A stretch of DNA of 64,000 bases from an uncultured Actinomycetes bacterium (GTDB taxonomy: Bacteria > Actinomycetota > Thermoleophilia > Solirubrobacterales > Solirubrobacteraceae). The notes under the pieces were generated by a model that had not been told where the DNA came from, did not search any database, and saw only the letters and a program-made list of their open reading frames with translations. Where the stretch lies: contig CAWFMM010000003.1 of the NCBI GenBank assembly GCA_963817035.1, positions 759,910-823,909 on the forward strand. The letters run 5' to 3'. The translations under genes were made by a program, and so were the position numbers. Within the stretch, counting starts at the first letter, position 1. The number at the start of each line of letters is the position of its first letter. Positions 25,815 to 60,094 of this stretch are shown piece by piece.

Positions 25815-26082
25815 GCTCGTGGAGCTCGTCGCGCTGCCATCCGCGGTCCGACGAGGCCGGCCGGCGAGCTCTCTTCTGCTGTGCGCGCAGACGTTCGGTT
25901 GTGCGATCGAACAGCTCAAGACGCTGCTCGCGGCTGAGTTGGCGCGGGGCGTCCGCCGATCGCTGGACGCGGATCGCCGCGCCGGCGGGCAGGAACTCGA
26001 GCTCGTCGCCGGAGACGATGCCGTAGCGGTCGGCGATCACCTTGGGAATCGTGACCTGCCGCTTGCTCGTGACGCGGGCCAT
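25798..26082 (-). CDS. vapB: AbrB/MazE/SpoVT-type antitoxin (VapB-like)
   Basis: 94 aa starting MARVTSKRQVTIPKVIADRYGIVSGDELEF, a typical swapped-hairpin antitoxin N-terminus. It lies immediately upstream of the PIN gene. Confidence 0.8.
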   Translation of the reverse strand: MARVTSKRQVTIPKVIADRYGIVSGDELEFLPAGAAIRVQRSADAPRQLSREQRLELFDRTTERLRAQQKRARRPASSDRGWQRDELHERARAR

Positions 26083-26084: not shown

Positions 26085-26116
26085 CCTTACTCTAGCAAGG
26101 ACACCGTCCTTACTCT
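26085..26116 (-). promoter_or_regulatory. direct repeat CCTTACTCT (x2) in the low-GC stretch upstream of the AbrB-type antitoxin; candidate operator/promoter
   Basis: CCTTACTCT occurs at 26085..26093 and 26108..26116. This is locally the only AT-rich segment. The second copy spans the stop codon of the sugar transferase gene. Confidence 0.3.
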
Positions 26117-42112: not shown

Positions 42113-42864
42113 GACATGTGCCCGACGGTGTCGGCGCGCAGGCCGAGGCGCAGGGTCTCGAGGCTCAGGACGTCGTCGGGGGCGATGTTGCCGAGGTTGA
42201 CCTCGGCCCCGAAGCGGCGCAGGAACCAGACCTGCTGATCCTTCTGGGGCGCCTCGAACAGGACGCGGCTGATGTCGATCGCGTGGGCGATCTCGTCGAT
42301 CAGTCCCATGCGCACCTCGCCGTCGGGGCGGTAGATCCCGGCCGTCCCGGTCTCGCGCGCCTCGGCGATGACCTTGAACGCCCCGGCCTCGAGCTCGGCC
42401 TCGATCTGCTCGACCCAGCGGTAGGGGGCCATGATCTCCTCGGCGTCCTTGGAGCCGACCTCGCTGAAGACGGTGAACCCCTCGCCGGCCAGCCGCGTGA
42501 TCAGCGCGAGCTTCTCCTCGCGGGCCAGGGCGATCGTCCCGTCGGAGATCTCGATGTGCGCCAGGCCGAGCTCGCGCAGCCACGCGACCAGGTCGTCGCC
42601 GCGATCCTGGCTCAGCGCGACCTCGGTCAGCGTGCCGCCGAGGACGACCGAGATCCCGTGCGCGCGGTAGCGCTCGAGCTTGGCCTCGAGGTTGGCGGTG
42701 ACCAGGGCCGTCCCCCAGCCGAGCTTGACGATGTCGATGTACGGCCCGGCGACCTCGACCAGACCATCGACGGCGGCGACCGACAGGCCGCGATCGAGGA
42801 CGTGGGTGAGTCCCGCCGAGCGCGGCTTGACGCTGCGCGGCGGGAGGTCGAGGAGGCTGGTCAT
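42109..42864 (-). CDS. comA: (2R)-phospho-3-sulfolactate synthase (ComA family)
   Basis: 251 aa: MTSLLDLPPRSVKPRSAGLTHVLDRGL..YIDIVKLGWGTALV..LGLAHIEISDGTIAL..FTVFSEVGSKD..VIAEARETGTAGIY. Full-length family-like pattern. Confidence 0.8.
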   Translation of the reverse strand: MTSLLDLPPRSVKPRSAGLTHVLDRGLSVAAVDGLVEVAGPYIDIVKLGWGTALVTANLEAKLERYRAHGISVVLGGTLTEVALSQDRGDDLVAWLRELGLAHIEISDGTIALAREEKLALITRLAGEGFTVFSEVGSKDAEEIMAPYRWVEQIEAELEAGAFKVIAEARETGTAGIYRPDGEVRMGLIDEIAHAIDISRVLFEAPQKDQQVWFLRRFGAEVNLGNIAPDDVLSLETLRLGLRADTVGHMS

Positions 42865-42882
42865 GACGCCCGGGCGGGGCGA

Positions 42883-44064: not shown

Positions 44065-45990
44065 CTAGGGCGCTTCGCGGAGCGCTGGCGCCGTCCGGAC
44101 CGCCGACAGCTCGGCCACCCGGGCCGCCAGACCCGCCGCATCGCCCTCGAGAACCAGCAGTCCGATCTGATCGAACATCTCCGCCACCGCGCCCGAATCG
44201 AGCGGTTCACGCTCGGCGCGGACGATCTTCTCGGCGGGCGTGAGCTGCGGGCGCTCGTAGTCGTTGAACAGCTCCTCGTGGAGCTTTTCGCCCGGCCGGC
44301 GACCGACGATCTCGATCGCGATGTCGGTGTCGGGCTTGAGCCCGGAGAGCTCGATCATGTCGCGCGCCAGGGCCATGATCGAGACCGGCTCGCCCATCTC
44401 GAGCACGTAGACCTCGCCGCCGTCGCCCAGCGATCCGGCGCGAATGACGAGCTGCACGGCCTCCGGAATCGTCATGAAGTAGCGCGTCATCCGCTCGTCG
44501 GTCACCGTGACGGGCCCGCCGAGCGCGATCTGACGACGGAAGATCGGGACGACCGAGCCGGAGGAGCCGAGCACGTTGCCGAAGCGCACGGTCGAGAAGC
44601 GCGTGGAAGGCCAGCGCCCCTGGGCCTCCTCGACCGCCCATTCGGCCAGCGCCTTGGACGCGCCCATGACCGTCGCCGGCGAGACCGCCTTGTCGGTCGA
44701 GACGAGAACGAAGCGCTTGACGCCCGTCTCGCCGCAGATGCGGGCCATCAGCCGCGTGGCGATCGCGTTGTTGCGCACCGCCTCGACCGGGTTTCGCTCC
44801 ATCAGCCCGACGTGCTTGTAGGCCGCCGCATGGAAGACGACGGTCGGGCGATGCTCGGCCAGCACCTCGCGCATCCGTTCGCCCTCCTTGCAGTCGGCAA
44901 GCACCGGCTGGAGCGTCGAGGGATGGACGTGGCGGTCGTCCTCGAGCTCGCGCTGGATGCGGAACAGGTGCTCCTCCGCGTGGTCGATGAGGATCATCTG
45001 GCGCGGCGCGACACGCGCGATCTGGCGACAGAGCTCCGAGCCGATCGAGCCGCCCGCGCCCGTGACCATGACGACCTCGCCGCTGAGGTAGGCGCCGACG
45101 CGATCGAGCTCCATGCGCACCGGCTCGCGCCCGAGGATGTCCTCGACCTCGACGCCACGGACCTGGCGCACGAAGTTGCCACCGCTCCCGGCCAGCAGCT
45201 CGAAGACCGTCGGCAGGGTGCGCACCGGGACGCCGCGCTCGCGGCACGCGCGCACGACGTCGCCCCGCAGCGCCCCGGACGCGGACGGGATCGCGATCAT
45301 CACCTCGTCGGGCTCGACCTCGTCGAGGATCCGATCGAGCTCGCGGCGCGGTCCGAGGACCTTCACGCCGTCGACGCGCTGGCCATGCAGGCGCGCGTCG
45401 TCGTCGACGAAGCCGACCGGATTCAGCCTGAGGTCGGGGTTGCGCATCACCTCACGCAGGACGAGGCGGCCGCCGTCGCCGGCGCCGACGATCAACACGC
45501 GCCGCGCATCACTGCGGGGCCTGAACCCGCGCAGTGGGCGTTCGTAGATCGTGCGCGCGATGAACCGCGCACCGCCGACCAGGCCGAGGGTGATGAGGAA
45601 GAAGAAGGCGAGAACACCCGGCGGGACGTTGACGCTCGCGCGCCCACCGGGGGGACCGGCGATCAGCGGATGCGTGACGACAACGAAGCCGGCGATCGAC
45701 AGCGTCGCCACGCTCACCGCTTCGATGATCGCGACGTAGTCGCGCTGGCCCACATAGCGCCACCACTTCTGGTAGAGCCCGAAGAGCGTGAAGATGATCA
45801 GGCTCGAGACGACCGTCCACGCGATCGTGCTCTCGAACAGCTGCTCGTAGCGCGCCGGGACGTGGCGGAAGTCAAACCGCAGGCGGTAGGCGAGGAAATA
45901 GGCCGCGGCGACCAGCACCGCATCGAGCACGACCTGCCCAAACGAGTGCCGGTGCAGCGGGACGGTCGCCGATCTCATGCGTCGGCGCAT
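44065..45990 (-). CDS. membrane-bound nucleotide-sugar 4,6-dehydratase (CapD/PglF/WbpM family)
   Basis: The last 641 aa of the 1051-aa track ORF: MRRRMRSATVPLHRHSFGQVVLDAVLVAAAYFLAYRL, 4 TM segments, VLIVGAGDGG, VMVTGAGGSIGSEL, FHAAAYKHV and STDKAVSPATVMGASK. Confidence 0.9.
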   Translation of the reverse strand: MRRRMRSATVPLHRHSFGQVVLDAVLVAAAYFLAYRLRFDFRHVPARYEQLFESTIAWTVVSSLIIFTLFGLYQKWWRYVGQRDYVAIIEAVSVATLSIAGFVVVTHPLIAGPPGGRASVNVPPGVLAFFFLITLGLVGGARFIARTIYERPLRGFRPRSDARRVLIVGAGDGGRLVLREVMRNPDLRLNPVGFVDDDARLHGQRVDGVKVLGPRRELDRILDEVEPDEVMIAIPSASGALRGDVVRACRERGVPVRTLPTVFELLAGSGGNFVRQVRGVEVEDILGREPVRMELDRVGAYLSGEVVMVTGAGGSIGSELCRQIARVAPRQMILIDHAEEHLFRIQRELEDDRHVHPSTLQPVLADCKEGERMREVLAEHRPTVVFHAAAYKHVGLMERNPVEAVRNNAIATRLMARICGETGVKRFVLVSTDKAVSPATVMGASKALAEWAVEEAQGRWPSTRFSTVRFGNVLGSSGSVVPIFRRQIALGGPVTVTDERMTRYFMTIPEAVQLVIRAGSLGDGGEVYVLEMGEPVSIMALARDMIELSGLKPDTDIAIEIVGRRPGEKLHEELFNDYERPQLTPAEKIVRAEREPLDSGAVAEMFDQIGLLVLEGDAAGLAARVAELSAVRTAPALREAP

Positions 45991-46053: not shown

Positions 46054-47094
46054 GTGAGCGTTGCCGCCACAGTCTCGCCCGGTCGGCCCCTGCGCGCCGG
46101 CGTCGTCGGCGCCGGGTCGATGGGCGCCCACCATGCCCGCGCGTACGCACTGCTCGGCGGTGCGGAGCTTGTCGGCGTCTATGACCTCGACCCGCGCCGC
46201 GCGTTGGACGTCGCCCAGCCGTTCGGCGCTCGCGCCTACCAGGAGCTCGAGGCGATGCTCGTCGACGTCGACGTCGTCACGATCGCCTCGCCGTCGCACC
46301 TGCACGTCGAGCACGCGCTGCTCGCGCTGCATCACCGCTGCGACGTCCTGATCGAGAAGCCGGTCGCGCTGACCGCGGCCAAGGTCCGGCTCTTGAAGCG
46401 CGCCGCCGCCCGCGATCCGCGCGGCCCGGTCGTCGCCGCCGGCCACATCGAGCACTTCAACCCCGCCGTCCGCGAGCTGCGCAAGCTGCTCGAGGGCCGC
46501 GAGATCCTCGGCATCGACTGCCGCCGTCTCGGCCCGGCGAGCACGCGCAATCAGGACATCGACGTCGTCCAGGATCTGATGCTCCACGACCTCCACATCG
46601 CGCTCGACCTCGCGGGGGCCTCGACCCCGGTACAGGTGCACGGGGCGGGGGTCGGCCTCGGCTCCAGCCCGACGCTCGAGTACGCAGTCGCGACCGTCGT
46701 CTTCGGTGGCGGGCTGGTCGGCACGTTCGGCGCGAGCCGCGCGACCGAGGAGCGCGTGCGCCGGATGAGCATCACCGCGACCGACGTGCACGTGACGGTG
46801 GACCTCGCGGCGCGCACGCTCGAGACCTGCCGTTCGACCGACCTTCACCCCGCCGGCGTGTCCGGTTCGGGCGTGCGCCAGGAGAGCCTGGTCGAGCGGA
46901 TCCACGTGCCCAGCGAGGAGCCGCTGCTGCTCCAGACCGCGGCGTTCCTCGAGGCCTGCGCTGAGCGGCACCCGCCGGTCGTCGGCCTCGACATCGCCGC
47001 GCGCTGCATGGATCTGGTCGATGACATCCGCGCCTGCGCACGCGGTGGCCGGGCGGTCGTCCCACGTCCGCAGTCCGTCGTCGTCGCGGCCTGA
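46054..47094 (+). CDS. Gfo/Idh/MocA-family oxidoreductase
   Basis: The 3' end of the spurious 1658-aa ORF. GTG 46054, with LRAGVVGAGSMGAHHARAY, VTIASPSHLHVEHAL and DVLIEKPVAL. Confidence 0.8.
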   Translation: MSVAATVSPGRPLRAGVVGAGSMGAHHARAYALLGGAELVGVYDLDPRRALDVAQPFGARAYQELEAMLVDVDVVTIASPSHLHVEHALLALHHRCDVLIEKPVALTAAKVRLLKRAAARDPRGPVVAAGHIEHFNPAVRELRKLLEGREILGIDCRRLGPASTRNQDIDVVQDLMLHDLHIALDLAGASTPVQVHGAGVGLGSSPTLEYAVATVVFGGGLVGTFGASRATEERVRRMSITATDVHVTVDLAARTLETCRSTDLHPAGVSGSGVRQESLVERIHVPSEEPLLLQTAAFLEACAERHPPVVGLDIAARCMDLVDDIRACARGGRAVVPRPQSVVVAA

Positions 47095-47095
47095 G

Positions 47096-48370
47096 ATGTC
47101 CGAGCTCCCGCTCGTCACGGTGGCGATCGTGACCCACCAGTTCGAGCAGTTCATCGAGCGTGCGATCGATTCGGCGTTGGCGATGGACTGGCCGGCGGAT
47201 CGGCTCGACGTGCTGATCATCGACGACGGCTCGACCGACTCGACGTCTGCGCTGGTTGCGGGGTACGGCGACCGCGTTCGCTACGTGCACAAGCCCAACG
47301 AGGGCGTCGTGGCAAGCGTGGCGCTGTCGTTTTCGATGTCGCGCGGGGATTTCATCGCGCCGCTGGCGGGTGACGACGAGTGCACGGTCGACCGGCTGCG
47401 CCGCCAGGTTCCGGTGCTGTTGGAGCGGCCCGAGGTCGGGCTGGTCTACGGCGACATGGAGCTGATCGATGCCGCGTCTCGCACGATCGCTCCATCATTT
47501 CGTGAGGCGATGGGTCTGGTCTGCCAGCAGGGCCGCTGCCTCGGTCCGCTGCTGAGCCGCAACTCGGTCTCGGGCGGGGCAGCGCTGATTCGTTCTTCGA
47601 TGCTTGCTCATGTGCTGCCGATGCCGCCCGAGGCGGTGTGGGAGGACTGGTGGACGGCGCTGAAGGTTGCCGAGGTGGCGGAGATCGCCTACCTCGACGA
47701 GCCGATCTACCGCTACCGCCATCACGGGCGCAACATGAATCTCGGTGCGCCGCCGGAGAAGGTCGTCGGGTTGCTGCGCCGCGAGCTGCCGTTCCGGCGC
47801 TGGCTGATGCGCGGCGAGGCGGTGTCGTTGACGACCGTACCCCGCTCGGACCTGCGCGCTGCGGTGATGACCTTCGACGACCAGGCCGCAAGCGTCGCGA
47901 CGTCGACCGGCGAGTGGCTGCACGACCTGCTCGAGATCACCGACCGCGACCGCCATCGCGCGGACGCGGCGTTCGCCGCCGACGACCCGCTGCGCGCACT
48001 GTCGTTCGATCCCGGCCACGCCGGTGCTCGGGCGGCGTTCGACATCGTCCAGGCGACGCCGCCTCCGATCGCCGCGCCCGGCGTCGTGACCGTCGCACTG
48101 GTGAACGACGTCATCGCGCAGCCCGATCTGTTCGCCTCCTACGAACGCTCGGGCTGTCGCGACGGCGCCGCGACACTCGTGCTGTACGCGCCGGGACGGC
48201 GTGCCGCGGACGTCCAGGCCGAGCTCCTCGCCGCCATCCCCCGCCTGGCCGACGACGACGCCCCCGACGTCCTGCTCTACGCCGTCCCGCCAATGTGGGC
48301 GACCGAACGGGCGCTGCTCGACCGCGCCACGCGCGTCCTGCGCGCCGAGCCCATCGCGCTCGCGGCGTAG
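47096..48370 (+). CDS. glycosyltransferase family 2 with a roughly 200-aa C-terminal extension of unknown function
   Basis: ATG 47096, 1 nt after the oxidoreductase stop: MSELPLVTVAIVTHQFEQFIERAIDSALAMDW..LIIDDGSTDST..PLAGDDE. Confidence 0.85.
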   Translation: MSELPLVTVAIVTHQFEQFIERAIDSALAMDWPADRLDVLIIDDGSTDSTSALVAGYGDRVRYVHKPNEGVVASVALSFSMSRGDFIAPLAGDDECTVDRLRRQVPVLLERPEVGLVYGDMELIDAASRTIAPSFREAMGLVCQQGRCLGPLLSRNSVSGGAALIRSSMLAHVLPMPPEAVWEDWWTALKVAEVAEIAYLDEPIYRYRHHGRNMNLGAPPEKVVGLLRRELPFRRWLMRGEAVSLTTVPRSDLRAAVMTFDDQAASVATSTGEWLHDLLEITDRDRHRADAAFAADDPLRALSFDPGHAGARAAFDIVQATPPPIAAPGVVTVALVNDVIAQPDLFASYERSGCRDGAATLVLYAPGRRAADVQAELLAAIPRLADDDAPDVLLYAVPPMWATERALLDRATRVLRAEPIALAA

Positions 48371-48380
48371 CACCGAGTGT

Positions 48381-48422
48381 CCACCACAGGGGTCAGACCC
48401 CTTGAGTGGTGCGCACTGAGAT
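48381..48422. repeat. REP-like intergenic palindromic element, copy 2
   Basis: CCACCACAGGGGTCAGACCCCTTGAGTGG plus a tail. About 85% identical over about 42 nt to 5915..5956. Confidence 0.6.
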
Positions 48423-48436
48423 TTGTTGCGTCCGCG

Positions 48437-48464
48437 CGCAGGAAGGGGTCTGACCCCTTGTGCG
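48437..48464. repeat. REP-like palindromic element, copy 3 (same core, different outer stem)
   Basis: CGCAGGAAGGGGTCTGACCCCTTGTGCG. The core AAGGGGTC(A/T)GACCCCTT is shared. Confidence 0.5.
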
Positions 48465-48466
48465 GC

Positions 48467-49252
48467 TCAGGCGGCGGCGCGGCGCGGCTGGCGGGCGGGG
48501 CGCAGTTCGCGCGCGGCGGCCATGACGCGGAAGTGCAGCCGGGCGATGCGCTGCTGGGCTTCAGGCGGGAAGACGTCGGCGAAGTGGGACATCCAGGGGT
48601 GACCGGTGGAGGAGTCGAGGTGGATCAAGTGGGTGACCGGGCCGCCGACGCGGCCGTCGGCGAGGACGACGGCGGCGGGCGGGATGGTGCCCTTGGGCTT
48701 GGCGCCCGAGGCGACGAACGCCCCGTAGCCAATGTCGCAGCCGGGCATGACGATCGTGTTCGTGCAGATCACGGCGCCGTCGCCGACGATCGCCGGCTCA
48801 CAGACGCGGCTCGGCGGCAGCGGGTCGTTGGTGAAGACGCATTTGGGGAAGATCCAGACGAAGTCGCCGATCTCGGTCCCGCAGCCGAAGACCGAATAGC
48901 CCTGGATGCGCGCGTAGTCGCCGATCGTCAGGTCACCCTCGAGCGCGGTCTGGGTCCCGATCCGGGCGTTGACCCCGATCCGGCACCCCGCGCGGATCAG
49001 CACCTGATGGCCGGTCTCCAGACCGGCGCCGATCGTCGATCCCTCGTAGAGGACGCTGTGCGAGCGGATCGTCGAGTTCGCGCCGATGACCAGCGGCCGA
49101 TCGTGCCCGCACGACTGCCCGACGACACAGTGGTCGCCGATCTTCGTGCCGTCCTCGATGACGACGTTGGGCCCGACGACGCTGAAGCGCCCGATCTCTA
49201 CATTGGCGGCAATCCGCGCCGCCGGGTCGATGTACGACTCGCCCGGTGGCAT
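48467..49252 (-). CDS. left-handed beta-helix (hexapeptide-repeat) acyltransferase
   Basis: 261 aa with repeated [LIV]-G-x4 hexapeptides (IAANVEIGRFSVVGPNVVIEDGTKIGDHCVVG..). The C-terminal 60 aa are non-repeat. Confidence 0.85.
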   Translation of the reverse strand: MPPGESYIDPAARIAANVEIGRFSVVGPNVVIEDGTKIGDHCVVGQSCGHDRPLVIGANSTIRSHSVLYEGSTIGAGLETGHQVLIRAGCRIGVNARIGTQTALEGDLTIGDYARIQGYSVFGCGTEIGDFVWIFPKCVFTNDPLPPSRVCEPAIVGDGAVICTNTIVMPGCDIGYGAFVASGAKPKGTIPPAAVVLADGRVGGPVTHLIHLDSSTGHPWMSHFADVFPPEAQQRIARLHFRVMAAARELRPARQPRRAAA

Positions 49253-49298
49253 GTAGTCCAGTGGTCGGCGTCACGGCGATCGACTTGAGTTGTGGAGC

Positions 49299-50522
49299 TC
49301 AGGCGACGGCTTCGACGGTGACCGCCCGCGTCAACTCGTCGAGCAGGTCCATGCCGTCCCAGCGGTGGGAGAAGCGCAGGGCTCCTCCGAGCGCGACGAT
49401 GCGATCGAGGCCGCGGCCGGCGGCGGCGGCGAGTAGCGCATCGATCTCTGCAGTCCCGAAGCCGTGGACGACGAGCGTCTGGTCGTGGCGGCAGAGAAGC
49501 GGGCCGAGAGCGGCGAGCGTCGGAAGCGAGGCTTCGAGCAGAAGGCCGGGGGCGCTGATATCGCGCGGCAGCGGCTCCAGCGACGACAGCGAGACGACGT
49601 GCAGCTCGTTGGAGAGCCGGCGCACGCGGCGCACCGGACGATCGACGGCGACCCCGGCGACGGTGGCGAACTTGCCCGTCACCGCGGCGGTCGGCAGCTC
49701 ATACCCGCGGCGCTCGACCGCGGCCTGCAAACGCTCCATGAGGTCGTCCGACGCCGCGTCGGCTTCGTCGCCGCACCAGACGATCAGCCGTGGCGACGAG
49801 CAGCCCTGCTGGTCGAAGAAGAAGACGTCGGCGAACAGGCGCTCGGCGAGGCCCGTGCGGTCCGCCGCGGTGGTCGCCAGCCACGCGCCGGAGTCGATCG
49901 CCGCGAGCGAGAAGCGATCGCCGAACCCGATGTCGCGGGCGTGCGGCGCCAACGGCGCCTGGCGGATGGCGGCCACCGTGGCGTCGCCGCCCCAGACCAT
50001 TCGCACGTCGCACGCGGCCGACAGCTCAAGCGTCGGCTCGGGCTCGTGGCCGTAGGCGACGACGGCCAACCCAGTCCGCAGCGCATCGAACCGTGGCTCC
50101 GAAGCAACGGCGTCGCCGAGCGCTTCCCAGAGGATCTCGGCCACCGGCCCGCGTGTCGGCGAGACCCGCACGACGTTCGTGTTGCCCGACAGCAGCGACA
50201 GCGCCAGCGAGTACATCGCCATCGTCTCGACGTTCGACGGCGGGACATGGAAGGCGAGGCCGCGAGCGACGCGACGCACCCCCACCGACGGCGACGGAGC
50301 CAGGCGCCGCAGCGACGCCGGCCGCAGCCAGAACGCCAGCGCCCCGAGCTCGGGATGCGCGCGGGCGTGCGGCGTCAGGCGCTTGGCCAGCGCGTCGCAC
50401 AGGGCCAGCGCGTCGTCGGAGAACGGCGCACGGCGCGGCGCAGCGGCGAGCGCGGTGAGCACGTCGGCGATCACGACGGACGACGCGGGCTCGGGCAACA
50501 GCTGTTCTCCGCGTGCGCTCAC
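49299..50522 (-). CDS. LuxC-like acyl-CoA/acyl-ACP reductase
   Basis: ORF 49299..50621 trimmed to GTG 50522, with GTGA overlap to the LuxE-like stop. FFFDQQGCSSPRLIVW contains the catalytic Cys context. HVPPSNVETMAMYSLALSLLSGNTNVVRVS also seen. Confidence 0.75.
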   Translation of the reverse strand: MSARGEQLLPEPASSVVIADVLTALAAAPRRAPFSDDALALCDALAKRLTPHARAHPELGALAFWLRPASLRRLAPSPSVGVRRVARGLAFHVPPSNVETMAMYSLALSLLSGNTNVVRVSPTRGPVAEILWEALGDAVASEPRFDALRTGLAVVAYGHEPEPTLELSAACDVRMVWGGDATVAAIRQAPLAPHARDIGFGDRFSLAAIDSGAWLATTAADRTGLAERLFADVFFFDQQGCSSPRLIVWCGDEADAASDDLMERLQAAVERRGYELPTAAVTGKFATVAGVAVDRPVRRVRRLSNELHVVSLSSLEPLPRDISAPGLLLEASLPTLAALGPLLCRHDQTLVVHGFGTAEIDALLAAAAGRGLDRIVALGGALRFSHRWDGMDLLDELTRAVTVEAVA

Positions 50523-51583
50523 GCCGCCACCGCCGCGGCGACGTCGCTGCACCCGCGCAGCTCCGCCTGCGCCAGGCGTCCGTGCACCGCAATCCCAGCC
50601 CCGCGCCAACCACACGCGCACCCGTCGCGCACGACGACGGTGCCGCGGTCCTCGGTCAGGATCGCGTGGCCCGGATACGACGTCGGCAGCGCGCTCAGCA
50701 CCTCGATCACGCCCTCGAATCCGTCGGGCACAGCCGCCCAGGTCACCGGGTCACGAACGATCACGTCAGCGTGGTTCGGCGCGTGCAGGAGCCCACATTC
50801 GCCCTGCGGAAAGACCGAGCCGATCTGCTCGACCATGCCGTAGTAGTCACACACGCGCTCGATCCCGCACGACGCGCGCAGCGTCCCGGCGAACACCTCG
50901 CGCGACACCGCCTGCGCGGCGAGCGACTTCCAGCCGCCGCCGTGAACGAGCACCGCGCCGGGCAGCGAGATGCCGAGCGTACGCAGGTGCGCCCAGACCA
51001 TGAACGTGAAGCCGAACACGAACAGCGGCTCGCCGGAGTGCTTCGCCAGCCACTCGGCCAACTCAGCCGAGCGCACCTGCATATCGGCATCGAGCAGATA
51101 GAAGTGATCGCGCCCGAAGATCGACATCCCGAGGATCCCCGCGGCCCGTGCGTTGAGGCGCCGCCGGTCGGCGACGGTCTCGCGCGCGTCGACGATCAGC
51201 ATCGGTCGGCGTTGCTTGCCGAGCACGGCGCCCATCGTCGCGGCGAGGGCCCGCGTCTGGCGCGCGGTCGACTCCGAGTCGAGCAGGATCCGGCTTGGCG
51301 ACTGGCCGCTCGTCCCGCTCGAGGTCAGCGTCTTGACGACCGCGTCGGCGGGAACCGAGACAAGCTCGTGGGTCTTGAACAGGCCGACCGGCAGCCACGG
51401 CACGTCGACCGCCCGCGACGGCACGCCGGCCCGGGGCCACAGCGCGTCGAGGACCCGCGCGTAGGGCGGGCACGCGGCGCGGTGGTGCTCGACCAGTCCG
51501 CCCAGCGCCCGGCCCAGCAGCAGCTCCTTCTCCTCACCGCCGAGCGAGAACGGCTCGGCGCGCAGGAGCTCGTCAGGCGGCAT
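50519..51583 (-). CDS. LuxE-like acyl-protein synthetase / adenylate-forming enzyme
   Basis: ORF 50519..51676 trimmed to M32 (MPPDELLRAEPFSLGGEEKELLL). Also LTSSGTSGQSPSRILLD and VLVHGGGWKSL. Confidence 0.75.
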   Translation of the reverse strand: MPPDELLRAEPFSLGGEEKELLLGRALGGLVEHHRAACPPYARVLDALWPRAGVPSRAVDVPWLPVGLFKTHELVSVPADAVVKTLTSSGTSGQSPSRILLDSESTARQTRALAATMGAVLGKQRRPMLIVDARETVADRRRLNARAAGILGMSIFGRDHFYLLDADMQVRSAELAEWLAKHSGEPLFVFGFTFMVWAHLRTLGISLPGAVLVHGGGWKSLAAQAVSREVFAGTLRASCGIERVCDYYGMVEQIGSVFPQGECGLLHAPNHADVIVRDPVTWAAVPDGFEGVIEVLSALPTSYPGHAILTEDRGTVVVRDGCACGWRGAGIAVHGRLAQAELRGCSDVAAAVAA

Positions 51584-52922
51584 CTCGCAGGTCCTCGGTC
51601 CGATCGTCGTCCTCGAGCTCGAGTGCCAGCGCCGCGTAGTCGATCTTGCCCGCCGCCGTCGTCGGCAGACGGTCAATCCCGCGCACGACGAACGAGCGGC
51701 CGCGCAGCGTCAGGCCGCCGGCCAACGCGGCCCGGGCGTCGACCTCGGCGCCTTCGACGAACACGATGATCTGATCCTCGCCGTGCTCCAGCGCGGCCGC
51801 CGGGCCGACCGACCGCACCAGCGCCTCGACCTCGTCGAGGTTCACGCGCAGGCCGTTGATCTTGGCGATCCGCTTGAGGCGCCCGGTGACGAAGAAGCAG
51901 CCATCGTCGTCGATGCGCCCGAGGTCGCCGGTCCGCAGGACGCCGCCGAGATCGTCGCCGCGCGCGAGATCCTCAGCCGTGTCGGCGTAGCCCATCATCA
52001 CGTTGGGTCCGGTGTAGACCAGCTCGCCGTCGTCGACCGACAGCGCGCCACCGGGGATCGCCACGCCGATCGCGCCCGGCTTGTCCCCGAGCTCCTCGGG
52101 CGGCACATAGGCGATCCGCGCGCACGCTTCGGTCTGGCCGTACATGACGACCAGCCGCGCGCCGCGCCCGTCGAGCTCGTCGGCGACCGACCGCACGAGC
52201 TCGGGGTCCATTCGCCCGCCCGCCTGGGTCATCGTCCGCAGGCCGCGCAGCCGGCGTGAACGCCAGTCGACGCGCTCCATCAGCGAGTACGAATAGGGAA
52301 CGCCGGACAGTGAGGTGCAGCCGTGGCGCTCGAACGCGTCCCAGAACTCGGGGCGCAGCACGCCGGCGCGGGGCAGGACGACGGAGCCACCGGCGACGAG
52401 GTGCGAGTTGAGGATCGAGAGCCCGTACGAGTAACCGAAGGGCAGCGAGACGAGGGCGCGCTCGCCTTCGTCGAGCGCGAGGTACTCAGCAATCGAGCGC
52501 GCGTTGGCGAGCATCGCCGCGGCCGACAGGCGCACGAGCTTCGGCGAGCCGGTGGTGCCCGAGGTCGAGAGCAGGACCGAGAGGTCAGGGTGGATCGGCG
52601 GGCGCGCGGCGGAATGCGACTCACCGGCGTCGACGAGCTCGTTGTCGAACATCACGAAGCGCGGCACGTAGCGGCGTTCGATCTCGGCCGTGTCGCCGTC
52701 GGCGAGCAGGACCGCGTGGCCGGCGGCAAGCGCGGCGAGGTAGGCGGTGACGGTCGCCGGGGTCAGCGCGGCGCGGACGAGGACGAGCTCCTTGTGGTCG
52801 GAGTGCAGCAGCTCGGCCGTCTCGCGGGCGCCGGAATGCAACTGGGCGTGCGTCCAGACGTTGGCGGTCGCGTCGTCGATCAGCGCAGGCGTCGTACGGG
52901 TCGGGTCGATCAGTTCGAGCAT
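51573..52922 (-). CDS. AMP-dependent synthetase/ligase (adenylation enzyme)
   Basis: 449 aa with LLSTSGTTGSPKLV, MYGQTEA, LRTGDLG and AGKIDY. Confidence 0.9.
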   Translation of the reverse strand: MLELIDPTRTTPALIDDATANVWTHAQLHSGARETAELLHSDHKELVLVRAALTPATVTAYLAALAAGHAVLLADGDTAEIERRYVPRFVMFDNELVDAGESHSAARPPIHPDLSVLLSTSGTTGSPKLVRLSAAAMLANARSIAEYLALDEGERALVSLPFGYSYGLSILNSHLVAGGSVVLPRAGVLRPEFWDAFERHGCTSLSGVPYSYSLMERVDWRSRRLRGLRTMTQAGGRMDPELVRSVADELDGRGARLVVMYGQTEACARIAYVPPEELGDKPGAIGVAIPGGALSVDDGELVYTGPNVMMGYADTAEDLARGDDLGGVLRTGDLGRIDDDGCFFVTGRLKRIAKINGLRVNLDEVEALVRSVGPAAALEHGEDQIIVFVEGAEVDARAALAGGLTLRGRSFVVRGIDRLPTTAAGKIDYAALALELEDDDRTEDLRDAA

Positions 52923-52925
52923 CGC

Positions 52926-53666
52926 TCAGACCACCATCCCGCCATCGACGCCGAGGATCTGCCCCGTTACATAGGACGAGCGGTCGGAAGCCAGCCACAC
53001 GATCGCCTCGGCGACCTCGGCTGGGTCGGCCAGGCGCCCGAGGCCGACGGCGGCGACGCGGGCCGCCAGCACGTCGGCCGGGAGCCCTGCGAGCAGTTCG
53101 GTGTCGACCAGCCCCGGAGCGACGGCGTTGACGCGCACGGCCGGCGCGAGCTCCTGGGCCGCGGCGCGGGTCATGCCGATCACCGACGCCTTGGCCGCGG
53201 CGTAGGCAGTCTGGCCGGGCGCCCCGGCGACGCCGACGATCGAGGAGACGTTGACGATCGCGCCACTGTCGGAGCGCTTCATCAGCCGCGACGCGCCCTG
53301 GAGGACGTTGAGCGCCCCGATCGCGTTGACCGCAAAGGTGTGCTGGAGCGCGTCGGCGGCGATCATGCCGAGCAGGCCCTGGTCCATGACGCCGGCGTTG
53401 TTGACGAGCACGTCGAGGCGCTTGTGGCGATCGAAGATCTCACGCATCGCGGTGGCGACCGCCGCCGCGTCGGCGACGTCGAAGGCCAGCGCCTCATGCG
53501 CGGCGCCCGACGGCGACGGCAGCTCGAGCGCGCGGGCCTCGGCGCGCGCGGTGTCGCGGCCATTGACGATCACGATCGCGCCCCGCTCGGCGAGCTGCTG
53601 CGCGACGGCCCAGCCGATTCCCCGAGTCGAACCGGTCACGAGCGCGACGCGCCCGTCGAAGCTCAT
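52926..53666 (-). CDS. SDR, 3-oxoacyl-ACP reductase (FabG)-like
   Basis: 246 aa with TGSTRGIG, NNAG, YAAAKASV and a C-terminal GQILGVDGGM. Confidence 0.9.
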   Translation of the reverse strand: MSFDGRVALVTGSTRGIGWAVAQQLAERGAIVIVNGRDTARAEARALELPSPSGAAHEALAFDVADAAAVATAMREIFDRHKRLDVLVNNAGVMDQGLLGMIAADALQHTFAVNAIGALNVLQGASRLMKRSDSGAIVNVSSIVGVAGAPGQTAYAAAKASVIGMTRAAAQELAPAVRVNAVAPGLVDTELLAGLPADVLAARVAAVGLGRLADPAEVAEAIVWLASDRSSYVTGQILGVDGGMVV

Positions 53667-53896
53667 GGGGTGACGCCGTGGCGCGCCAGGATCTCGACCG
53701 CAGCGTCGTAGCTCGAGAGCCCGATGATGTCGTCGGTGTCGAGCATCAGCCCGTAGGCGTCCTCGATCTCGGCGACGAGCGCCATGTGACCGACCGAATC
53801 CCAGTGCTCGTGCGCACCGTAGGCGAGCACGCGAACGTCGAGGTCGGTCGGCAGCTCGAGCGCGCTCGAGAAAGCGGTGGTGAGGGTGTCGGACAT
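53663..53896 (-). CDS. acyl carrier protein
   Basis: ORF 53663..53959 trimmed to M22 (MSDTLTTAFSSALELP..HWDSVGHMALVAEIEDAYG). A DS(V/L) phosphopantetheine site is present. ATGA overlap with the FabG-like gene. Confidence 0.8.
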   Translation of the reverse strand: MSDTLTTAFSSALELPTDLDVRVLAYGAHEHWDSVGHMALVAEIEDAYGLMLDTDDIIGLSSYDAAVEILARHGVTP

Positions 53897-54012
53897 GGCG
53901 GCGGGGAAAACGCGGGCGGACGCAGGGACGCCCACACCCCGGGTAGTCGGTCGCGTCAAGCGGTTGCTTTAGGGCGATTCAACCGCGGCGTCACCCCGCC
54001 GATTGAACGGGT

Positions 54013-54654
54013 GTGATCGGGTTTGCCGCCTGCGTGGGATCGCCGGACAAGCTGGCCGCCTTTGGCGCGCCGGGGCTCAAGCTCGCCATGGAGCCCGACT
54101 CGGTCTTCGCGGAGCTGACGACGACCACGTCGATCCACAAGGCCTACAACGAGGCGCTCGAGCACTTCGCCGCCTACGACGACCTCGAGGCGCTCGTCCT
54201 CCTGCACGAGGACACCGAGATCCTCGACGCCGGCTTCTGCGACAAGGTCCGCGAGGCGCTCAGCGACCCCGACGTCGCGATCGTCGGCCCGGTCGGTGCG
54301 CGCAACGTGCCCTCACTCGCCTGGTGGGAGGGCGAGATCGCCGGTTCGGTCGCCGAGACCCGCGGCACGATCGCCGGCGACGCGTCAAACCCTGACGTCG
54401 ACGCCCTCGACGGGCTGATGCTCGTCCTCTCCCCGTGGGCCGTGCGCAACCTGCGCTGCGACACCGCCGCCTTCTCCGGCTTCCACGCCTACGACCTCGA
54501 CCTCTGCTTCCAGGCCCGCGCCGCCGGCCGCGCGGTCCGCATCGCCCCGCTCACCGTCTTTCACCACACCAAGGGCGGCTTCGGCGACGAGACGCTGTGG
54601 CGAAACGCCGACGCGGCGTTTCGCGCGAAGTGGCCGCTCGCCGAAGCAGCCTAG
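54013..54654 (+). CDS. glycosyltransferase-like protein (GT-A, Glyco_tranf_2_5-like)
   Basis: 213 aa (GTG start) with LVLLHEDTEILD, DALDGLMLVLSPWAV and FSGFHAYDLDLCFQARAAG. Confidence 0.6.
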   Translation: MIGFAACVGSPDKLAAFGAPGLKLAMEPDSVFAELTTTTSIHKAYNEALEHFAAYDDLEALVLLHEDTEILDAGFCDKVREALSDPDVAIVGPVGARNVPSLAWWEGEIAGSVAETRGTIAGDASNPDVDALDGLMLVLSPWAVRNLRCDTAAFSGFHAYDLDLCFQARAAGRAVRIAPLTVFHHTKGGFGDETLWRNADAAFRAKWPLAEAA

Positions 54655-55034
54655 TCGGTCCAGAAGTCGTGCACGAGCTCCCCGTCGCCCTTGTGACGCG
54701 GGCCGAAGACGAGCCACTCGAGTCCCTCGGGGCCGGCCTCGAAGCAGCGCGTGACCTTGGGGGCGATGCGGATCGCGTCCATCGTGTCGATGTCGCGGAT
54801 CTCGTCGTCGAGGCGCACCTTGCCGCTGCCCGAGAGGATGACGTTGATCTCCTCGGCATCCTGGTGGCGGTGGCCGAACCCCTGGCGCTTTCCGGGGCGC
54901 AGCACGTGGTAGGCGAGGCCGGTGTCCTGCGCATCGACGTCCTCGCCGGCGAAGCGCGCGGACCCCTTGTCGCCGAAGCCGTACTTCGGGGCCGAGTCCT
55001 CGACGTTGTTGAGATTGGTGATCGTGTAGCTCAT
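54651..55034 (-). CDS. cupin domain protein (paralog of 13083..13469)
   Basis: ORF 54651..55403 trimmed to M124 (MSYTITNLNNVEDSAPKYGF). Also GFGHRHQDAEEINVILSGSG and GDGELVHDFWTD. Confidence 0.85.
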   Translation of the reverse strand: MSYTITNLNNVEDSAPKYGFGDKGSARFAGEDVDAQDTGLAYHVLRPGKRQGFGHRHQDAEEINVILSGSGKVRLDDEIRDIDTMDAIRIAPKVTRCFEAGPEGLEWLVFGPRHKGDGELVHDFWTD

Positions 55035-55051: not shown

Positions 55052-56134
55052 CTACACGGCGGCGGCTACCGCGCCCACGACTTCCTCGACCTGCTCGCGC
55101 GTGATCGCGGCGCTGATCGGCAGGGCGAAGTGGGTCCGCGCGACCTCGGCGGTGCCCGGCAGGTCGACGGTCGGCTGGTAGGCGGACATCGACTGCTGGC
55201 GGTGGATCGGTACGCGGTAGTAGGCACGCGACTGGATGCCGGCCGCGCTGAGCGCGTCGATGATCGCGTCGGCCTTCGGGTGGCGCACGACGTAGAGATG
55301 CCACGCCGGCCGCGAACCCTCGGTCGCCACCGGCAGCGCGACGTGATCGCCCAAGCCGCAGTCCGCGTACCACTCCCCGGCCGCGCGGCGATGGTCGGCC
55401 CACGCGTCGAGATGCGGCAACTGCACCCGCAGGATCGCCGCCTGGATCTCGTCGAGGCGGCTGTTGTAGCCGATCTCCTTGTACGTGACCTTGTCGTGGG
55501 AGCCGTGGAACCGCAGCACGCGCACGCGCTCGGCCAGCGAGCGGTTCTCGGTGACGATCGCGCCGCCGTCGCCGAACGCGCCGAGGTTCTTGGACGGGTA
55601 GAACGAGAACGTCGAGATCCGCCCGACGGTCCCCGGCCGCCCGTGGGAGCTCAGCGTGCCGGCAGCCTGCGCGGTGTCCTCGAGCACCGAGACGCCCATC
55701 GCCTCGATCTCGGTCACCGGCGCGACGTTGCCGAACAGATGGACCGCGATCACCGCCTTCGTCCTCGGCGTCAGGGCCGCGCGCACCGTCTCGGGCGTGA
55801 CCATCATCGTCTGCGGATCGACGTCGCAGAACACCGGGCGCGCGCCGGTCGGCGGGATCGCCTCGGCGCTGGCGTAGAACGAGAACGACGGGACGACGAC
55901 ATCGTCGCCCGGCCCGACGCCGAGCGCGCGCAGGGCAATCGTGATCGCCTCGGTGCCGTTGGCCACGCCCATCACCTCACGCGCGCCGAGGTAGCGGGCG
56001 AACTCCGACTCGAACGCCGCGACCTCCTCGCCGAGGATGTACTGCTCGCGATCGAGGACCCGGCCGACGGCCGCGCGCAGCTCGTCGCGCAGCGGGTGCA
56101 GCGGTGTCGCGGGATCGAACAGTGGGACGGCCAT
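55052..56134 (-). CDS. DegT/DnrJ/EryC1/StrS-family PLP-dependent sugar aminotransferase
   Basis: ORF 55052..56353 trimmed to M74 (MAVPLFDPATPLHPLRDEL). Also VANGTEAITIAL, FSFYPSKNLGAFGDGGAI and GYNSRLDEIQAAIL. Confidence 0.9.
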   Translation of the reverse strand: MAVPLFDPATPLHPLRDELRAAVGRVLDREQYILGEEVAAFESEFARYLGAREVMGVANGTEAITIALRALGVGPGDDVVVPSFSFYASAEAIPPTGARPVFCDVDPQTMMVTPETVRAALTPRTKAVIAVHLFGNVAPVTEIEAMGVSVLEDTAQAAGTLSSHGRPGTVGRISTFSFYPSKNLGAFGDGGAIVTENRSLAERVRVLRFHGSHDKVTYKEIGYNSRLDEIQAAILRVQLPHLDAWADHRRAAGEWYADCGLGDHVALPVATEGSRPAWHLYVVRHPKADAIIDALSAAGIQSRAYYRVPIHRQQSMSAYQPTVDLPGTAEVARTHFALPISAAITREQVEEVVGAVAAAV

Positions 56135-58393: not shown

Positions 58394-59089
58394 TTACGAG
58401 AGACGAACGAAGCCCGTGGCGCCGTTGCCGTCGGATCCGTAGGCGTGGCGCGTGACGGCGTTGCCGGAGTTGCCCTCGATCGTGTGGATCGAGCCGTCGG
58501 CATCGACCGAATCGACGATCCCGATGTGCTCCGAGCCCCAGACGATCAGGTCGCCGGCGGCGGGCACGACGCCCGGCCCGGCCGCTACCGCGCGGCCCGT
58601 GCGTTGCGCCCAGTCATACAGCGCGGAGACCGATTGGAAGCCCTGGCCCTGTTCTCCGACCGGCTCGCCGGCCTGCTTGGCCGCCCAGCTGACGAACTGC
58701 GCGCACCACGGGCCGATGCCGGCGCCCGACACCGCGCCGCGATAGGCCGCGATCTCGGCGGAGTCGTTGGATCCGGGCGGCTGCTCGGTGACGCCCACCT
58801 GGCTCGCCGCGGCCGCGACGATCGCCGCGCCGCCGGTCTGGGCGGGCGTGGTCGCGACCGCTGCGGCCGGGAGAAGCAGCGAGCGGGTCGTGCTCGTCGT
58901 CACCGGGTTGGCGACCGTCGACGTGGCCGTCGGCAGCGCCGCGGTGCTCGAAGCCTGGGACTCGTTGCTCAGCACGTCGGCGAACGCGCCGCCGGTCGAC
59001 GTCGCGGTGGACGTGCTCTGCTTGGGGGGGGTCGGGGCCAGCATCGTCTCGATCTGAGCGATGCGGGCAACGGCGGCGTCGATGCTCAC
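58394..59089 (-). CDS. CHAP-domain peptidoglycan hydrolase without a recognisable Sec signal
   Basis: ORF 58394..59245. The first 50 codons coincide with the fliC terminator and a long inverted repeat, so the start is placed at GTG 59089 (VSIDAAVARIAQIETML); ATG 59044 is also possible. CHAP Cys context: GIGPWCAQFVSW, then EHIGIV. Confidence 0.7.
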   Translation of the reverse strand: MSIDAAVARIAQIETMLAPTPPKQSTSTATSTGGAFADVLSNESQASSTAALPTATSTVANPVTTSTTRSLLLPAAAVATTPAQTGGAAIVAAAASQVGVTEQPPGSNDSAEIAAYRGAVSGAGIGPWCAQFVSWAAKQAGEPVGEQGQGFQSVSALYDWAQRTGRAVAAGPGVVPAAGDLIVWGSEHIGIVDSVDADGSIHTIEGNSGNAVTRHAYGSDGNGATGFVRLS

Positions 59090-59210
59090 ACCAAGGTGGT
59101 CGGCGGTCGTGAACCGCCCTTTAACCTGGATCCACCGATCGACCGTGAGTGCGAGGACGTTCTGAGGCGTCCACGCGCCGCGGGAATCGGTGGATCCGGG
59201 TTTAACGCCA

Positions 59211-59234
59211 ACGAGGGGCCCGCGGGCCCCTCGT
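59211..59234 (-). terminator. GC-rich hairpin about 60 nt downstream of fliC (putative intrinsic terminator)
   Basis: On the minus strand: ACGAGGGGCC-CGCG-GGCCCCTCGT followed by TGGCGTTAAA, a weak U-tract. Confidence 0.55.
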
Positions 59235-59293
59235 CGACGATCCATCCCCCGGAGGCGTCATGCCCCTGGAGCGTTGGTGCGTGTTGCTCGTGA

Positions 59294-60094
59294 CTAGCGC
59301 AGCAGCGACAGGACCGACTGCGGCGCCTGGTTGGCCTGCGACAACATCGCGATGCCCGCCTGAGACAGGATCTGGTTGTTGGTCAGCTTGACCGTCTCCG
59401 ACGCCATGTCCACATCGACGATGCGGGAGTTGGCGGCGGTCAGGTTCTGCTGGTAGGTCGCCGCGGCGTTCAGCGCGTGATCGAGGCGGCCGGAGACCGC
59501 ACCGAACGTTGCGCGCTGGGCGCTGATCGCGTCGATCGCCGTGTCGATGCTCGAGATCACGGTCGCGGAACCGAGCGACGTGAACGCGGTGCCGACGGTG
59601 GAGCCCAGCGAGATCGTGCTCGCCGAGATCGTCTCGCCGTCGTTGGCGCCGACCTGGAAGGTCACCGAACCGGCGGTCGCCAGCAGCTTGATGCCGTTGA
59701 ACGAAGCGGCGGAACCGAGGCGCTCGATCTCCGACGCGAGCTGGTTGACCTCGGTCTGGATCGCCGACTGATCGGTTGTGTCGAGCGTGCCGTTCTTGTA
59801 CTGCACGGCGAGCTCACGGACGCGCTGCAGCATCGAGTGCACCTCGTCGAGGTTGCCCTCGGCGGTCTGCACCAGCGACTGGCCGTCCTGGATGTTGGCC
59901 TGAGCCTGCGCGAGGCCGCTGATCTGACCCTGCATCTTCTCCGAGATGGTCAGGCCGGCAGCGTCGTCGGCGGCCGAGTTGATGCGCTTGCCGGTTGACA
60001 GACGCTCCATCGACTTCGACAGCGCGCTCGTCGTGCGAGCGAGGTTGTTGGCGGCGCCCATGGCGTCGACGTTCGTGTTGATGCGAAGGGACAT
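59294..60094 (-). CDS. fliC: flagellin (short form, D0/D1 domains only)
   Basis: The last 266 aa of the 781-aa track ORF: MSLRINTNVDAMGAANNLARTTSALSKSMERLSTGKRINSAADDAAGLTISEKM...LTNNQILSQAGIAMLSQANQAPQSVLSLLR. AGGAG lies 8 nt upstream of the ATG. Confidence 0.95.
   Translation of the reverse strand: MSLRINTNVDAMGAANNLARTTSALSKSMERLSTGKRINSAADDAAGLTISEKMQGQISGLAQAQANIQDGQSLVQTAEGNLDEVHSMLQRVRELAVQYKNGTLDTTDQSAIQTEVNQLASEIERLGSAASFNGIKLLATAGSVTFQVGANDGETISASTISLGSTVGTAFTSLGSATVISSIDTAIDAISAQRATFGAVSGRLDHALNAAATYQQNLTAANSRIVDVDMASETVKLTNNQILSQAGIAMLSQANQAPQSVLSLLR

Follow-up and report, generated by a model that had tools for sequence, protein, structure and literature searches.

On the minus strand of a 64,000-nucleotide stretch of contig CAWFMM010000003.1 (hereafter the window) lie genes for an acyl carrier protein (ACP), a FabG-like short-chain dehydrogenase/reductase (SDR), an adenylate-forming AMP-ligase, a LuxE-type acyl-protein synthetase, a LuxC-type acyl-thioester reductase and a left-handed beta-helix (LbH) N-acyltransferase. 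We judge it somewhat better than an even bet, given the sequence relationships described below, that the first five proteins would make an unusual short acyl-ACP and that the LbH enzyme would place the acyl group on N-3 of UDP-GlcNAc3N for a surface glycoconjugate. The genes encoding the first five proteins are a portable conserved unit, a very widespread orphan module that has repeatedly been recorded in flagellin glycosylation islands but not explained. The module is known genomically already but is biochemically uncharacterized, and the window copy adds a new carrier. When an amino sugar carries an N-acyl group other than acetyl, this shapes antigenicity, phage recognition and flagellar assembly; for most such groups the genes are still unassigned.

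The cassette and its predicted chemistry

A first-pass annotation of the window had placed six co-directional genes at 48467-53896, and all six open reading frames (ORFs) do lie there on the minus strand. Read along that strand they are the ACP gene (53663-53896, 77 residues), the SDR gene (52926-53666, 246 residues; adh_short_C2, 7.6e-60; motifs TGSTRGIG and YAAAK), a short AMP-ligase gene (51573-52922, 449 residues; AMP-binding, 3.3e-40), the LuxE gene (50519-51583, 354 residues; PF04443, 1.5e-49), the LuxC gene (49299-50522, 407 residues; PF05893, 1.4e-34) and the LbH gene (48467-49252, 261 residues; Hexapep, 4.1e-24). The three junctions listed earlier could each be read from the sequence: the stop of the ACP gene and the start of the SDR gene share an ATGA (53666-53663), the AMP-ligase gene (stop codon 51575-51573) and the LuxE gene (ATG at 51583) overlap by 11 nt, and the LuxE stop and LuxC start share a GTGA (50522-50519). 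The SDR and AMP-ligase genes are separated by 3 nt and the LuxC and LbH genes by 46 nt; at four of the five junctions the genes overlap or nearly abut. An alternative in-frame LuxC start, TTG at 50498, would give a protein of 399 residues and was chosen by a public gene call. A scan for promoters and terminators was uninformative at the 71% G+C of the window. The ACP serine, LuxE TSSGTSG, LuxC FDQQGC and SDR motifs named in the annotation are present and its parts list was correct. The cassette is tightly coupled, with catalytic residues in place.

Pfam matched the SDR, AMP-ligase, LuxE, LuxC and LbH proteins strongly, whereas the PP-binding match of the ACP fell under its cut-off (19.1 bits versus 20.8). 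A family profile built from 25 syntenic ACP homologues matched 42 solved ACPs end to end with W32-D33-S34 invariant, and syntenic homologues were present in 64 loci. By these alignments the 77-residue protein is an acyl carrier protein, with Ser34 of WDSVGHM as the predicted pantetheine serine. The SDR gave 222 bits with the NCBIfam FabG models, which is under the equivalog cut-offs. The best solved relatives of the AMP-ligase are oxalate-CoA ligase, a stand-alone nonribosomal peptide synthetase-type adenylation enzyme (3wvn), malonyl-CoA synthetase and DltA, all of which activate small acids or load carrier proteins, and its NCBIfam matches include the 2-oxoglutaryl-ACP ligase AmcH. By its relatives the AMP-ligase would be expected to load its acid onto the ACP.

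The cassette LuxE and LuxC were aligned to chains E and A of the solved LuxC-LuxE structure 7xc6. TSSGTSG and the C-terminal acyl-cysteine in RGCS are common to both LuxE proteins, and LuxC FDQQGCSS aligned to YDQQACFS of 7xc6 LuxC with the cysteines matched (DQQ[G/A]C). The first-pass annotation had held that this is not a bioluminescence system. We agree, because the NCBIfam equivalog scores lie ten-fold under their cut-offs (50 bits versus 550 for LuxE and 45.7 bits versus 750 for LuxC) and no luxA/luxB luciferase or luxD family was seen among the roughly 60 window ORFs scanned, which are not all the ORFs of the window. The best solved relative of the LbH protein is QdtC (3fs8, 1.7e-30, residues 7-199), followed by FdtD and WlbB; these three are 3-N-acetyltransferases. 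LpxA and LpxD match the protein over a short N-terminal repeat stretch only. Its hexapeptide repeats begin at residue 4 and Pfam found no PglD_N domain in it. The LbH protein would pass the acyl group from the ACP to the amine of a sugar.

A set of two carboxylate activators, two reductases (one acting on a thioester, one forming an alcohol) and a carrier protein, with no chain extender, is best fitted by a scheme in which a small dicarboxylic or oxo-acid would be converted to a hydroxyacyl-ACP. LuxE would adenylate the carboxylate and hold the acyl group on its C-terminal cysteine, LuxC would reduce the LuxE-held thioester to the aldehyde, the SDR would reduce the aldehyde (or a keto group) to the alcohol, and the AMP-ligase, as an ANL enzyme, would adenylate the remaining carboxyl group and load it onto the ACP. 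For the sugar, a GnnA-like protein encoded in the window would oxidize UDP-N-acetylglucosamine (UDP-GlcNAc) to UDP-3-oxo-GlcNAc, which a C3-type aminotransferase of the surrounding core locus would convert to UDP-GlcNAc3N. The LbH enzyme would then acylate N-3 of UDP-GlcNAc3N with the ACP-borne acyl group and glycosyltransferases would attach the decorated sugar to a surface glycoconjugate. We infer the chemical steps, the acyl donor of the LbH enzyme, the identity of the acid, the acylated position and the acceptor polymer.

Distribution of the module and the acyl group

Relatives of the cassette LuxE-like protein number in the thousands. When species-representative genomes were scanned, at least 554 LuxE relatives were confirmed among the 600 matches listed, and the best 80 loci of these were surveyed for the full module. 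The order ACP-SDR-ligase-LuxE-LuxC was intact on one strand in 49 of the 80 loci and nine more were broken by contig ends; LuxE was flanked by both AMP-ligase and LuxC in about 75. An LbH gene, the sixth gene of the block as first annotated, adjoins the module in only about 12 of the 80 loci. By record titles the loci came from Bacillota (22), Actinomycetota (19), Acidobacteriota (13) and Bacteroidota and allies (13), with the remainder from Pseudomonadota, Desulfobacterota, Spirochaetota and GN15, which makes at least seven phyla overall. Actinomycetota carriers include Nonomuraea, Actinoplanes, Micromonospora, Mycobacterium and Solirubrobacterales. The best relatives with names are Solirubrobacteraceae, Capillimicrobium and Thermoleophilaceae, which makes a source in Thermoleophilia likely. 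The earlier statement that high-GC Gram-positives have no characterized counterpart holds for the biochemistry but not for the module, which is common in Actinomycetota.

We clustered the neighboring genes of the 80 loci and annotated representatives. Genes of the DegT family were found in 28 loci, NeuB in 14, a PseB-like dehydratase in 13, a CMP-sugar synthetase in 10, and PseG-like, GNAT and MBOAT proteins in seven each, together with many glycosyltransferases. The amino-sugar genes among these neighbors place the module in amino-sugar and nonulosonic-acid glycan loci. One locus (L072) packs PglF, DegT, LbH, the module and PglC into 9 kb, with an LbH gene of the NeuD/PglD type upstream of the module.

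In every close relative of the window cassette an LbH gene follows LuxC, with 4-nt LuxC/LbH overlaps in L082, L084 and L087. The LbH enzyme after LuxC is of the NeuD/PglD type in those three loci and of the QdtC type in the window and in a Brevibacillus locus (L046), and in both QdtC-type loci a GnnA-like gene is adjacent too. That the type of acyltransferase is exchanged while its place stays the same speaks for the LbH protein as the outlet of the module, matched to the sugar pathway at hand. It is quite unlikely that this protein is a plain acetyl-CoA N-acetyltransferase and that the module product leaves otherwise, either as an O-acyl or amide group that another enzyme attaches or as a transaminated LuxC aldehyde giving an amino-acyl or amino-alcohol product. 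QdtC, WlbB and FdtD do all use acetyl-CoA, most distant loci lack an adjacent LbH gene, the module is paired with MBOAT proteins in Bacteroidota and with GNAT proteins in Bacillota loci, and DegT-family enzymes can act on aldehydes, a Kdo8N transaminase being among the DegT matches. However, in all close relatives the LbH gene stands directly after LuxC and in several is translationally coupled to it, the LbH type varies with the sugar pathway while its position is fixed, and the Vibrio cholerae set likewise has an LbH acetyltransferase homologue at its end.

Neighbors of the module in Clostridia include a split transketolase, thiamine pyrophosphate (TPP) enzymes and malate/lactate dehydrogenases. 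In five such loci (L031, L036, L043, L045 and L068) the module is elaborated: there are two LuxE-LuxC-SDR sets, and further SDRs, the split transketolase and an acetolactate-synthase-like TPP enzyme are encoded as well, as though C-C bond formation extended the LuxC aldehyde there. In L022, L030, L035, L047 and L065 (Bacteroidota, Ignavibacteria) two MBOAT-family genes lie just past LuxC on the opposite strand, a pairing that recalls DltA/DltC/DltB and suggests, for those lineages, export of the acyl group to a polymer outside the cytoplasm. In L046 (Brevibacillus ginsengisoli, 4901-14056) two LbH genes, a GnnA-like gene and a gene for a CgeB-like glycosyltransferase (DUF3880 and Glyco_trans_1_2) flank the module. 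No aminotransferase was found within 10 kb of that module, and the locus may be a spore-surface glycan island.

Our best guess, by analogy, takes the acyl group to be a reduced C4 hydroxy-acid, either tetronate-like (2,4-dihydroxybutanoyl) or 4-hydroxybutanoyl in kind. Malate/lactate-dehydrogenase genes beside LuxC in five loci hint at a C4 hydroxy-acid, as do the small-acid-activating and carrier-loading relatives of the AMP-ligase and its match to a 2-oxoglutaryl-ACP ligase. In flagellin of the module-bearing Aeromonas piscicola strain AH-3 a derivative of pseudaminic acid has a mass of 376.14 Da, and a further moiety of 102 Da is unexplained (PMC7874193). A dihydroxybutanoyl group (C4H6O3) predicts by our computation masses of 376.148 and 102.032, and both AH-3 masses fit. 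The reading of these masses as a dihydroxybutanoyl substituent is inferred in the present analysis and is not a published assignment; a literature search for dihydroxybutanoyl sugar substituents yielded nothing useful.

It is very unlikely that the module instead yields a fatty aldehyde, fatty alcohol or acyl group with a long chain, and hence a lipid-bearing sugar. No ketosynthase, dehydratase or enoyl reductase belongs to the module at any of the 80 loci, the identity of the cassette proteins to true LuxC and LuxE is low with scores far under the equivalog cut-offs, the ligase is closest to small-acid activators and the V. cholerae counterpart makes a C4 acid. The non-standard glycan masses of AH-3 (+60 Da on pseudaminic acid and 102 Da; PMC7874193) are not lipid-sized. 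These observations stand against the facts that in luminous bacteria the substrates of LuxC and LuxE are C14 fatty acids, that 7xc6 is the only solved relative, and that lipid incorporation was proposed by the authors of the studies of Aeromonas and Enterobacteriaceae islands (PMC7874193, PMC4875605).

A broader proposal, which we regard as unlikely in its full form, is that the module is a universal, horizontally traded route from a C4 dicarboxylic acid (malate or succinate) to (di)hydroxybutanoyl-ACP, which in the window would feed QdtC-like N-3 acylation of UDP-GlcNAc3N. LpxA N-acylates UDP-GlcNAc3N from acyl-ACP downstream of GnnA and GnnB. If the proposal were true, the window would encode a Gram-positive equivalent of the step that GnnA, GnnB and LpxA carry out in lipid A synthesis, with a private carrier protein.

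The accessory block, the amino sugar and the acceptor

Comparison of the window with a 469-kb metagenomic contig (L088) gave the boundaries of the inserted DNA. By blastn the homology runs up to window position 54653 and restarts at 46068, with about 28 nt between the two in L088. These breakpoints therefore define 46069-54652 as an accessory block of 8,584 bp that is absent from this colinear relative. Its nine genes encode the GnnA-like oxidoreductase of the Gfo/Idh/MocA family, a GT2 glycosyltransferase, the LbH, LuxC, LuxE, ligase, SDR and ACP proteins, and a small divergent GT2-like protein. The cassette should thus be redrawn as a nine-gene accessory block. The surrounding order in L088 (PNPOx, BacA, DedA, DegT, cupin, PglF, LytR_C, ComA, DMFA2_C-like and Wzy_C) is colinear with the window, at protein identities of about 48-89% (72-89% for the breakpoint flanks) and DNA identities of 78-85%. 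Four closer relatives (L086, L090, L091 and L092) share the window's junction. We found no convincing direct or terminal repeats at the edges of the segment and make no claim of a mobile element. The presence and absence of the cassette inside a conserved envelope-glycan locus is a pattern typical of surface-antigen diversification.

The gene of the soluble GT2 glycosyltransferase (47096-48370, plus strand, 424 residues; Glycos_transf_2, 5.4e-20) begins 1 nt past the stop codon of the oxidoreductase gene and is convergent with the LbH gene. The small GT2-like protein (54013-54654, plus strand, 213 residues; Glyco_tranf_2_5, PF13712, 1.3e-12) is encoded divergently from the ACP, a position it also has in L086, L090 and L091. 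No membrane segment was predicted in the larger GT2 protein, and both cassette glycosyltransferases are predicted to be soluble.

The first-pass annotation had a PglF/CapD-type dehydratase and a DegT aminotransferase flanking one cassette, in a locus primed by a PglC-size transferase. Pfam confirmed all three proteins: the membrane-anchored PglF/WbpM/CapD-type UDP-GlcNAc 4,6-dehydratase (44065-45990, minus strand; Polysacc_synt_2, 7.8e-109, plus CoA_binding_3), the DegT-family aminotransferase (55052-56134, minus strand; PF01041, 1e-100) and the PglC-size transferase (26110-26703, 197 residues; Bac_transf, 3e-64). The dehydratase has N-terminal hydrophobic segments and is 89% identical to the L088 protein. 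The flanking relationship did not hold, as the dehydratase and DegT are part of the conserved core, and the cassette is an insertion in that core.

The window holds one aminotransferase gene, one LbH gene and one Gfo gene, and no DegT paralogue. Among C3 aminotransferases DegT matched DesV at 2.3e-79 (270 bits), QdtB at 1.7e-72 and WbpE at 1e-61, compared with 4e-49 for perosamine synthase, 2e-44 for ArnB, 1.5e-24 (90 bits) for PglE and 5e-22 for PseC among C4 enzymes. The GnnA-like gene (46054-47094, plus strand), which like the cupin gene at 54651-55034 had been overlooked in the first-pass annotation, encodes a candidate UDP-GlcNAc 3-dehydrogenase. Its best solved relative is GnnA (7bvj, 3e-36, full length), and it matched the NCBIfam UDP-GlcNAc 3-dehydrogenase model NF040723 at 5.6e-44 with 150.9 bits, under the cut-off of 450. 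In Brevibacillus L046 a GnnA-like homologue comes after the QdtC-like LbH gene. Together the aminotransferase, LbH and dehydrogenase homologies favor acylation of a 3-amino sugar, and these sequence relationships point to a 3-amino rather than a 4-amino bacillosamine-like sugar as the acylated species.

The bacillosamine-like 4-amino-4,6-dideoxyhexose of the first-pass annotation is thereby disfavored, since DegT is closest to C3 enzymes, the LbH protein is QdtC-like and a GnnA-like gene lies in the same block. In its full form, with PglF and DegT making a UDP-linked bacillosamine-like 4-amino-4,6-dideoxy-N-acetylhexosamine that the LbH enzyme acylates on N-4 with the ACP-derived group, we consider that pathway unlikely. 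In its favor, the PglF-type dehydratase and DegT are adjacent in the core even in L088, with no GnnA-like gene in the 16 kb read, a PglC-size transferase is encoded in the window, and PglD-type LbH genes accompany the module in L072 and in L084-type relatives, in L072 together with PglF and PglC. Opposed to it are the scores of DegT (270 bits to DesV versus 90 bits to PglE), the QdtC-like LbH protein lacking the PglD N-terminal domain, the membership of the GnnA-like 3-dehydrogenase in the accessory block, and the distance of 22 kb to the PglC-size gene. The sugar model should, by these sequence comparisons, be revised towards a 3-amino sugar.

Several points weigh against our preferred reading, that an ACP-borne hydroxyacyl group is placed on N-3 of UDP-GlcNAc3N. 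DegT lies in the core beside a 4,6-dehydratase and is present in L088, and no GnnA-like gene was found within the 16 kb of L088 that was read, so the core DegT may act on the PglF product. Regiospecificity is not safely readable from overall similarity, and C4 chemistry or a 6-deoxy-3-amino sugar is possible. QdtC itself uses acetyl-CoA and the LbH protein could be an ordinary N-acetyltransferase. Among the distant loci only about 12 of 80 have an LbH gene adjoining the module, and other outlets (GNAT, MBOAT) or other acceptors must therefore exist. What supports the identity of the acyl group is analogy and a coincidence of masses in a different genus, and no enzyme assay of this module was found in the literature. 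The SDR could perform either aldehyde or 3-oxo reduction, and the sequences do not fix the order in which the ligase and the LuxE/LuxC pair act. A hypothesis of three elements, a separable module, an outlet acyltransferase exchanged to suit the sugar pathway and a product that may be a small reduced hydroxy-acid, is testable in any tractable carrier of the module.

The cupin (54651-55034, minus strand, 127 residues) is a metal-type protein of the conserved core encoded 17 nt downstream of DegT, and it adjoins DegT in L086, L088 and L092 also. We considered it as a QdtA/FdtA-type 3,4-ketoisomerase that would connect PglF to a C3 aminotransferase, and rejected this assignment. Pfam and NCBIfam gave only a weak generic Cupin_2 match (1e-5), a PDB sequence search gave nothing specific, Foldseek with the AlphaFold model (pLDDT 96) returned generic metal cupins with no FdtA or QdtA among them, and a homologue in L089 has an unrelated context. 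The family is very conserved, with 871 relatives found and the best 120 at 60-95% identity.

The acceptor was approached through the neighboring genes. By its gene families (PglC-size transferase, Wzy_C, LytR_C, undecaprenyl-pyrophosphate phosphatase and DedA) the extended locus is lipid-linked envelope glycan machinery; the solubility of both cassette glycosyltransferases does not discriminate between acceptors. The window also encodes a short flagellin, FliC (59294-60094, minus strand, 266 residues; Flagellin_N, 4.7e-42; Flagellin_C, 9.6e-26), with a Ser/Thr-rich center. The fliC gene lies 5.4 kb from the ACP gene, with DegT, DedA, BacA, PNPOx and a CHAP hydrolase between them. Most of these intervening genes flank the same site in the cassette-less L088, and hence the proximity of fliC says little here and is a property of the core locus; the 16 kb read of L088 contained no fliC. 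However, in L002, L082 and L087, the LuxE proteins of which are about 59-62% identical to that of the window, the cassette plus LbH gene immediately follows a flagellin gene, and DegT, a methyltransferase and two large soluble glycosyltransferases are encoded there as well; fliC is near the module in Ornithinibacillus L071 too. For the module at large, flagellin is thus a genuine candidate acceptor. The earlier suggestion of flagellin as a possible acceptor fits, at that level, the literature and these relatives; the proximity of fliC in the window, to which it had appealed, says little.

Other genes of the window deserve mention. About 36 nt past the fliC stop codon begins the gene of a CHAP-domain peptidoglycan hydrolase (58394-59257, minus strand), perhaps a wall hydrolase associated with the flagellum. 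Beside LytR_C in the conserved core is a gene for a ComA-type phosphosulfolactate synthase (42109-42882, minus strand, 3.3e-89), 88% identical in L088 (12072-12824), which hints at a sulfolactate-derived substituent or is an unrelated conserved neighbor. A PIN-domain ORF (25389-26036, minus strand) lies between an ATP-grasp gene and the gene of the PglC-size phosphoglycosyl transferase. A transketolase is split over two overlapping minus-strand ORFs in 18625-20986 (18625-19257 and 18971-20986), one with the N-terminal and pyrimidine-binding domains and the other with the C-terminal domain, which suggests a frameshift or sequencing error. An ORF of 1165 residues (5951-9448, minus strand) has a strong coding bias (GC3 0.95) and no Pfam match.

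Comparison with known systems

Shewanella sfmABCDE was considered as another copy of the module and dropped, since the paper shows a different gene set without LuxE or LuxC. The V. cholerae O1 rfbK-O (wbeK-O, VC0248-VC0252) genes, which are assigned to the tetronate N-acyl group of an amino sugar, share with the cassette, as a list of parts, an ACP, a ligase, LuxE/LuxC-type proteins, an alcohol-forming reductase and an LbH homologue. In V. cholerae RfbN is a fused LuxE-LuxC protein and RfbM an iron-containing alcohol dehydrogenase, whereas the cassette has separate LuxE and LuxC genes and an SDR instead of the iron enzyme. The V. cholerae sugar is GDP-perosamine, a 4-amino sugar, and that of the window is probably a UDP-linked 3-amino sugar. 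A 1995 proposal for V. cholerae tetronate synthesis reportedly followed the same logic of acid reduction and ACP loading. The analogy with VC0248-VC0252 drawn by the first-pass annotation is sound as a parts list, and the tetronate assignment of these genes is itself based solely on homology (PMC3441752).

Five genes in the same order (orf1-orf2-orf3-luxE-luxC) have been described in 98 Aeromonas strains as a hallmark of Group II flagellin glycosylation islands (PMC7874193), and Acp, FabG, CaiC, LuxE and LuxC homologues occur in the islands of about 70-80 Enterobacteriaceae strains (PMC4875605). Neither paper gives a functional test of the five genes and both guess a lipid component. The Aeromonas block has the gene content and order of the cassette module, with a glycosyltransferase gene following nearby; the likeness to the Enterobacteriaceae islands is one of families, with order not compared. 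Both literatures fit the link between the module and glycan decoration made at first pass (PMC7874193, PMC4875605). The Aeromonas and Enterobacteriaceae blocks lie between pseudaminic acid genes beside flagellar regions, whereas that of the window lies in an undecaprenyl-type envelope glycan locus, and no NeuB, CMP-transferase or PseG was found in the window. The window adds an LbH gene and a GnnA-like gene to a block of this type.

The LuxC-LuxE pair of luminous bacteria (7xc6) has the same folds and catalytic residues as the cassette pair. The cassette differs in that no luxA, luxB or luxD was seen with it, its LuxC is about 70 residues shorter and its substrate is probably a short functionalized acid. 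With the Campylobacter Pgl pathway the window has in common a PglF-type membrane dehydratase and a PglC-size phosphoglycosyl transferase, but by closest relatives its aminotransferase is probably not of the PglE type and its acyltransferase is not of the PglD type. By similarity the window has a C3-type aminotransferase and an LbH N-acyltransferase in common with the GnnA-GnnB-LpxA, WbpB-WbpE-WbpD and QdtB-QdtC routes, and it encodes a candidate 3-dehydrogenase. The LpxA route provides a precedent for an acyl-ACP donor at N-3, although the acyltransferase of the window is QdtC-like rather than LpxA-like. Unlike that route, the window would draw its acyl donor from a private ACP module, in a host that is probably an actinobacterium without lipid A.

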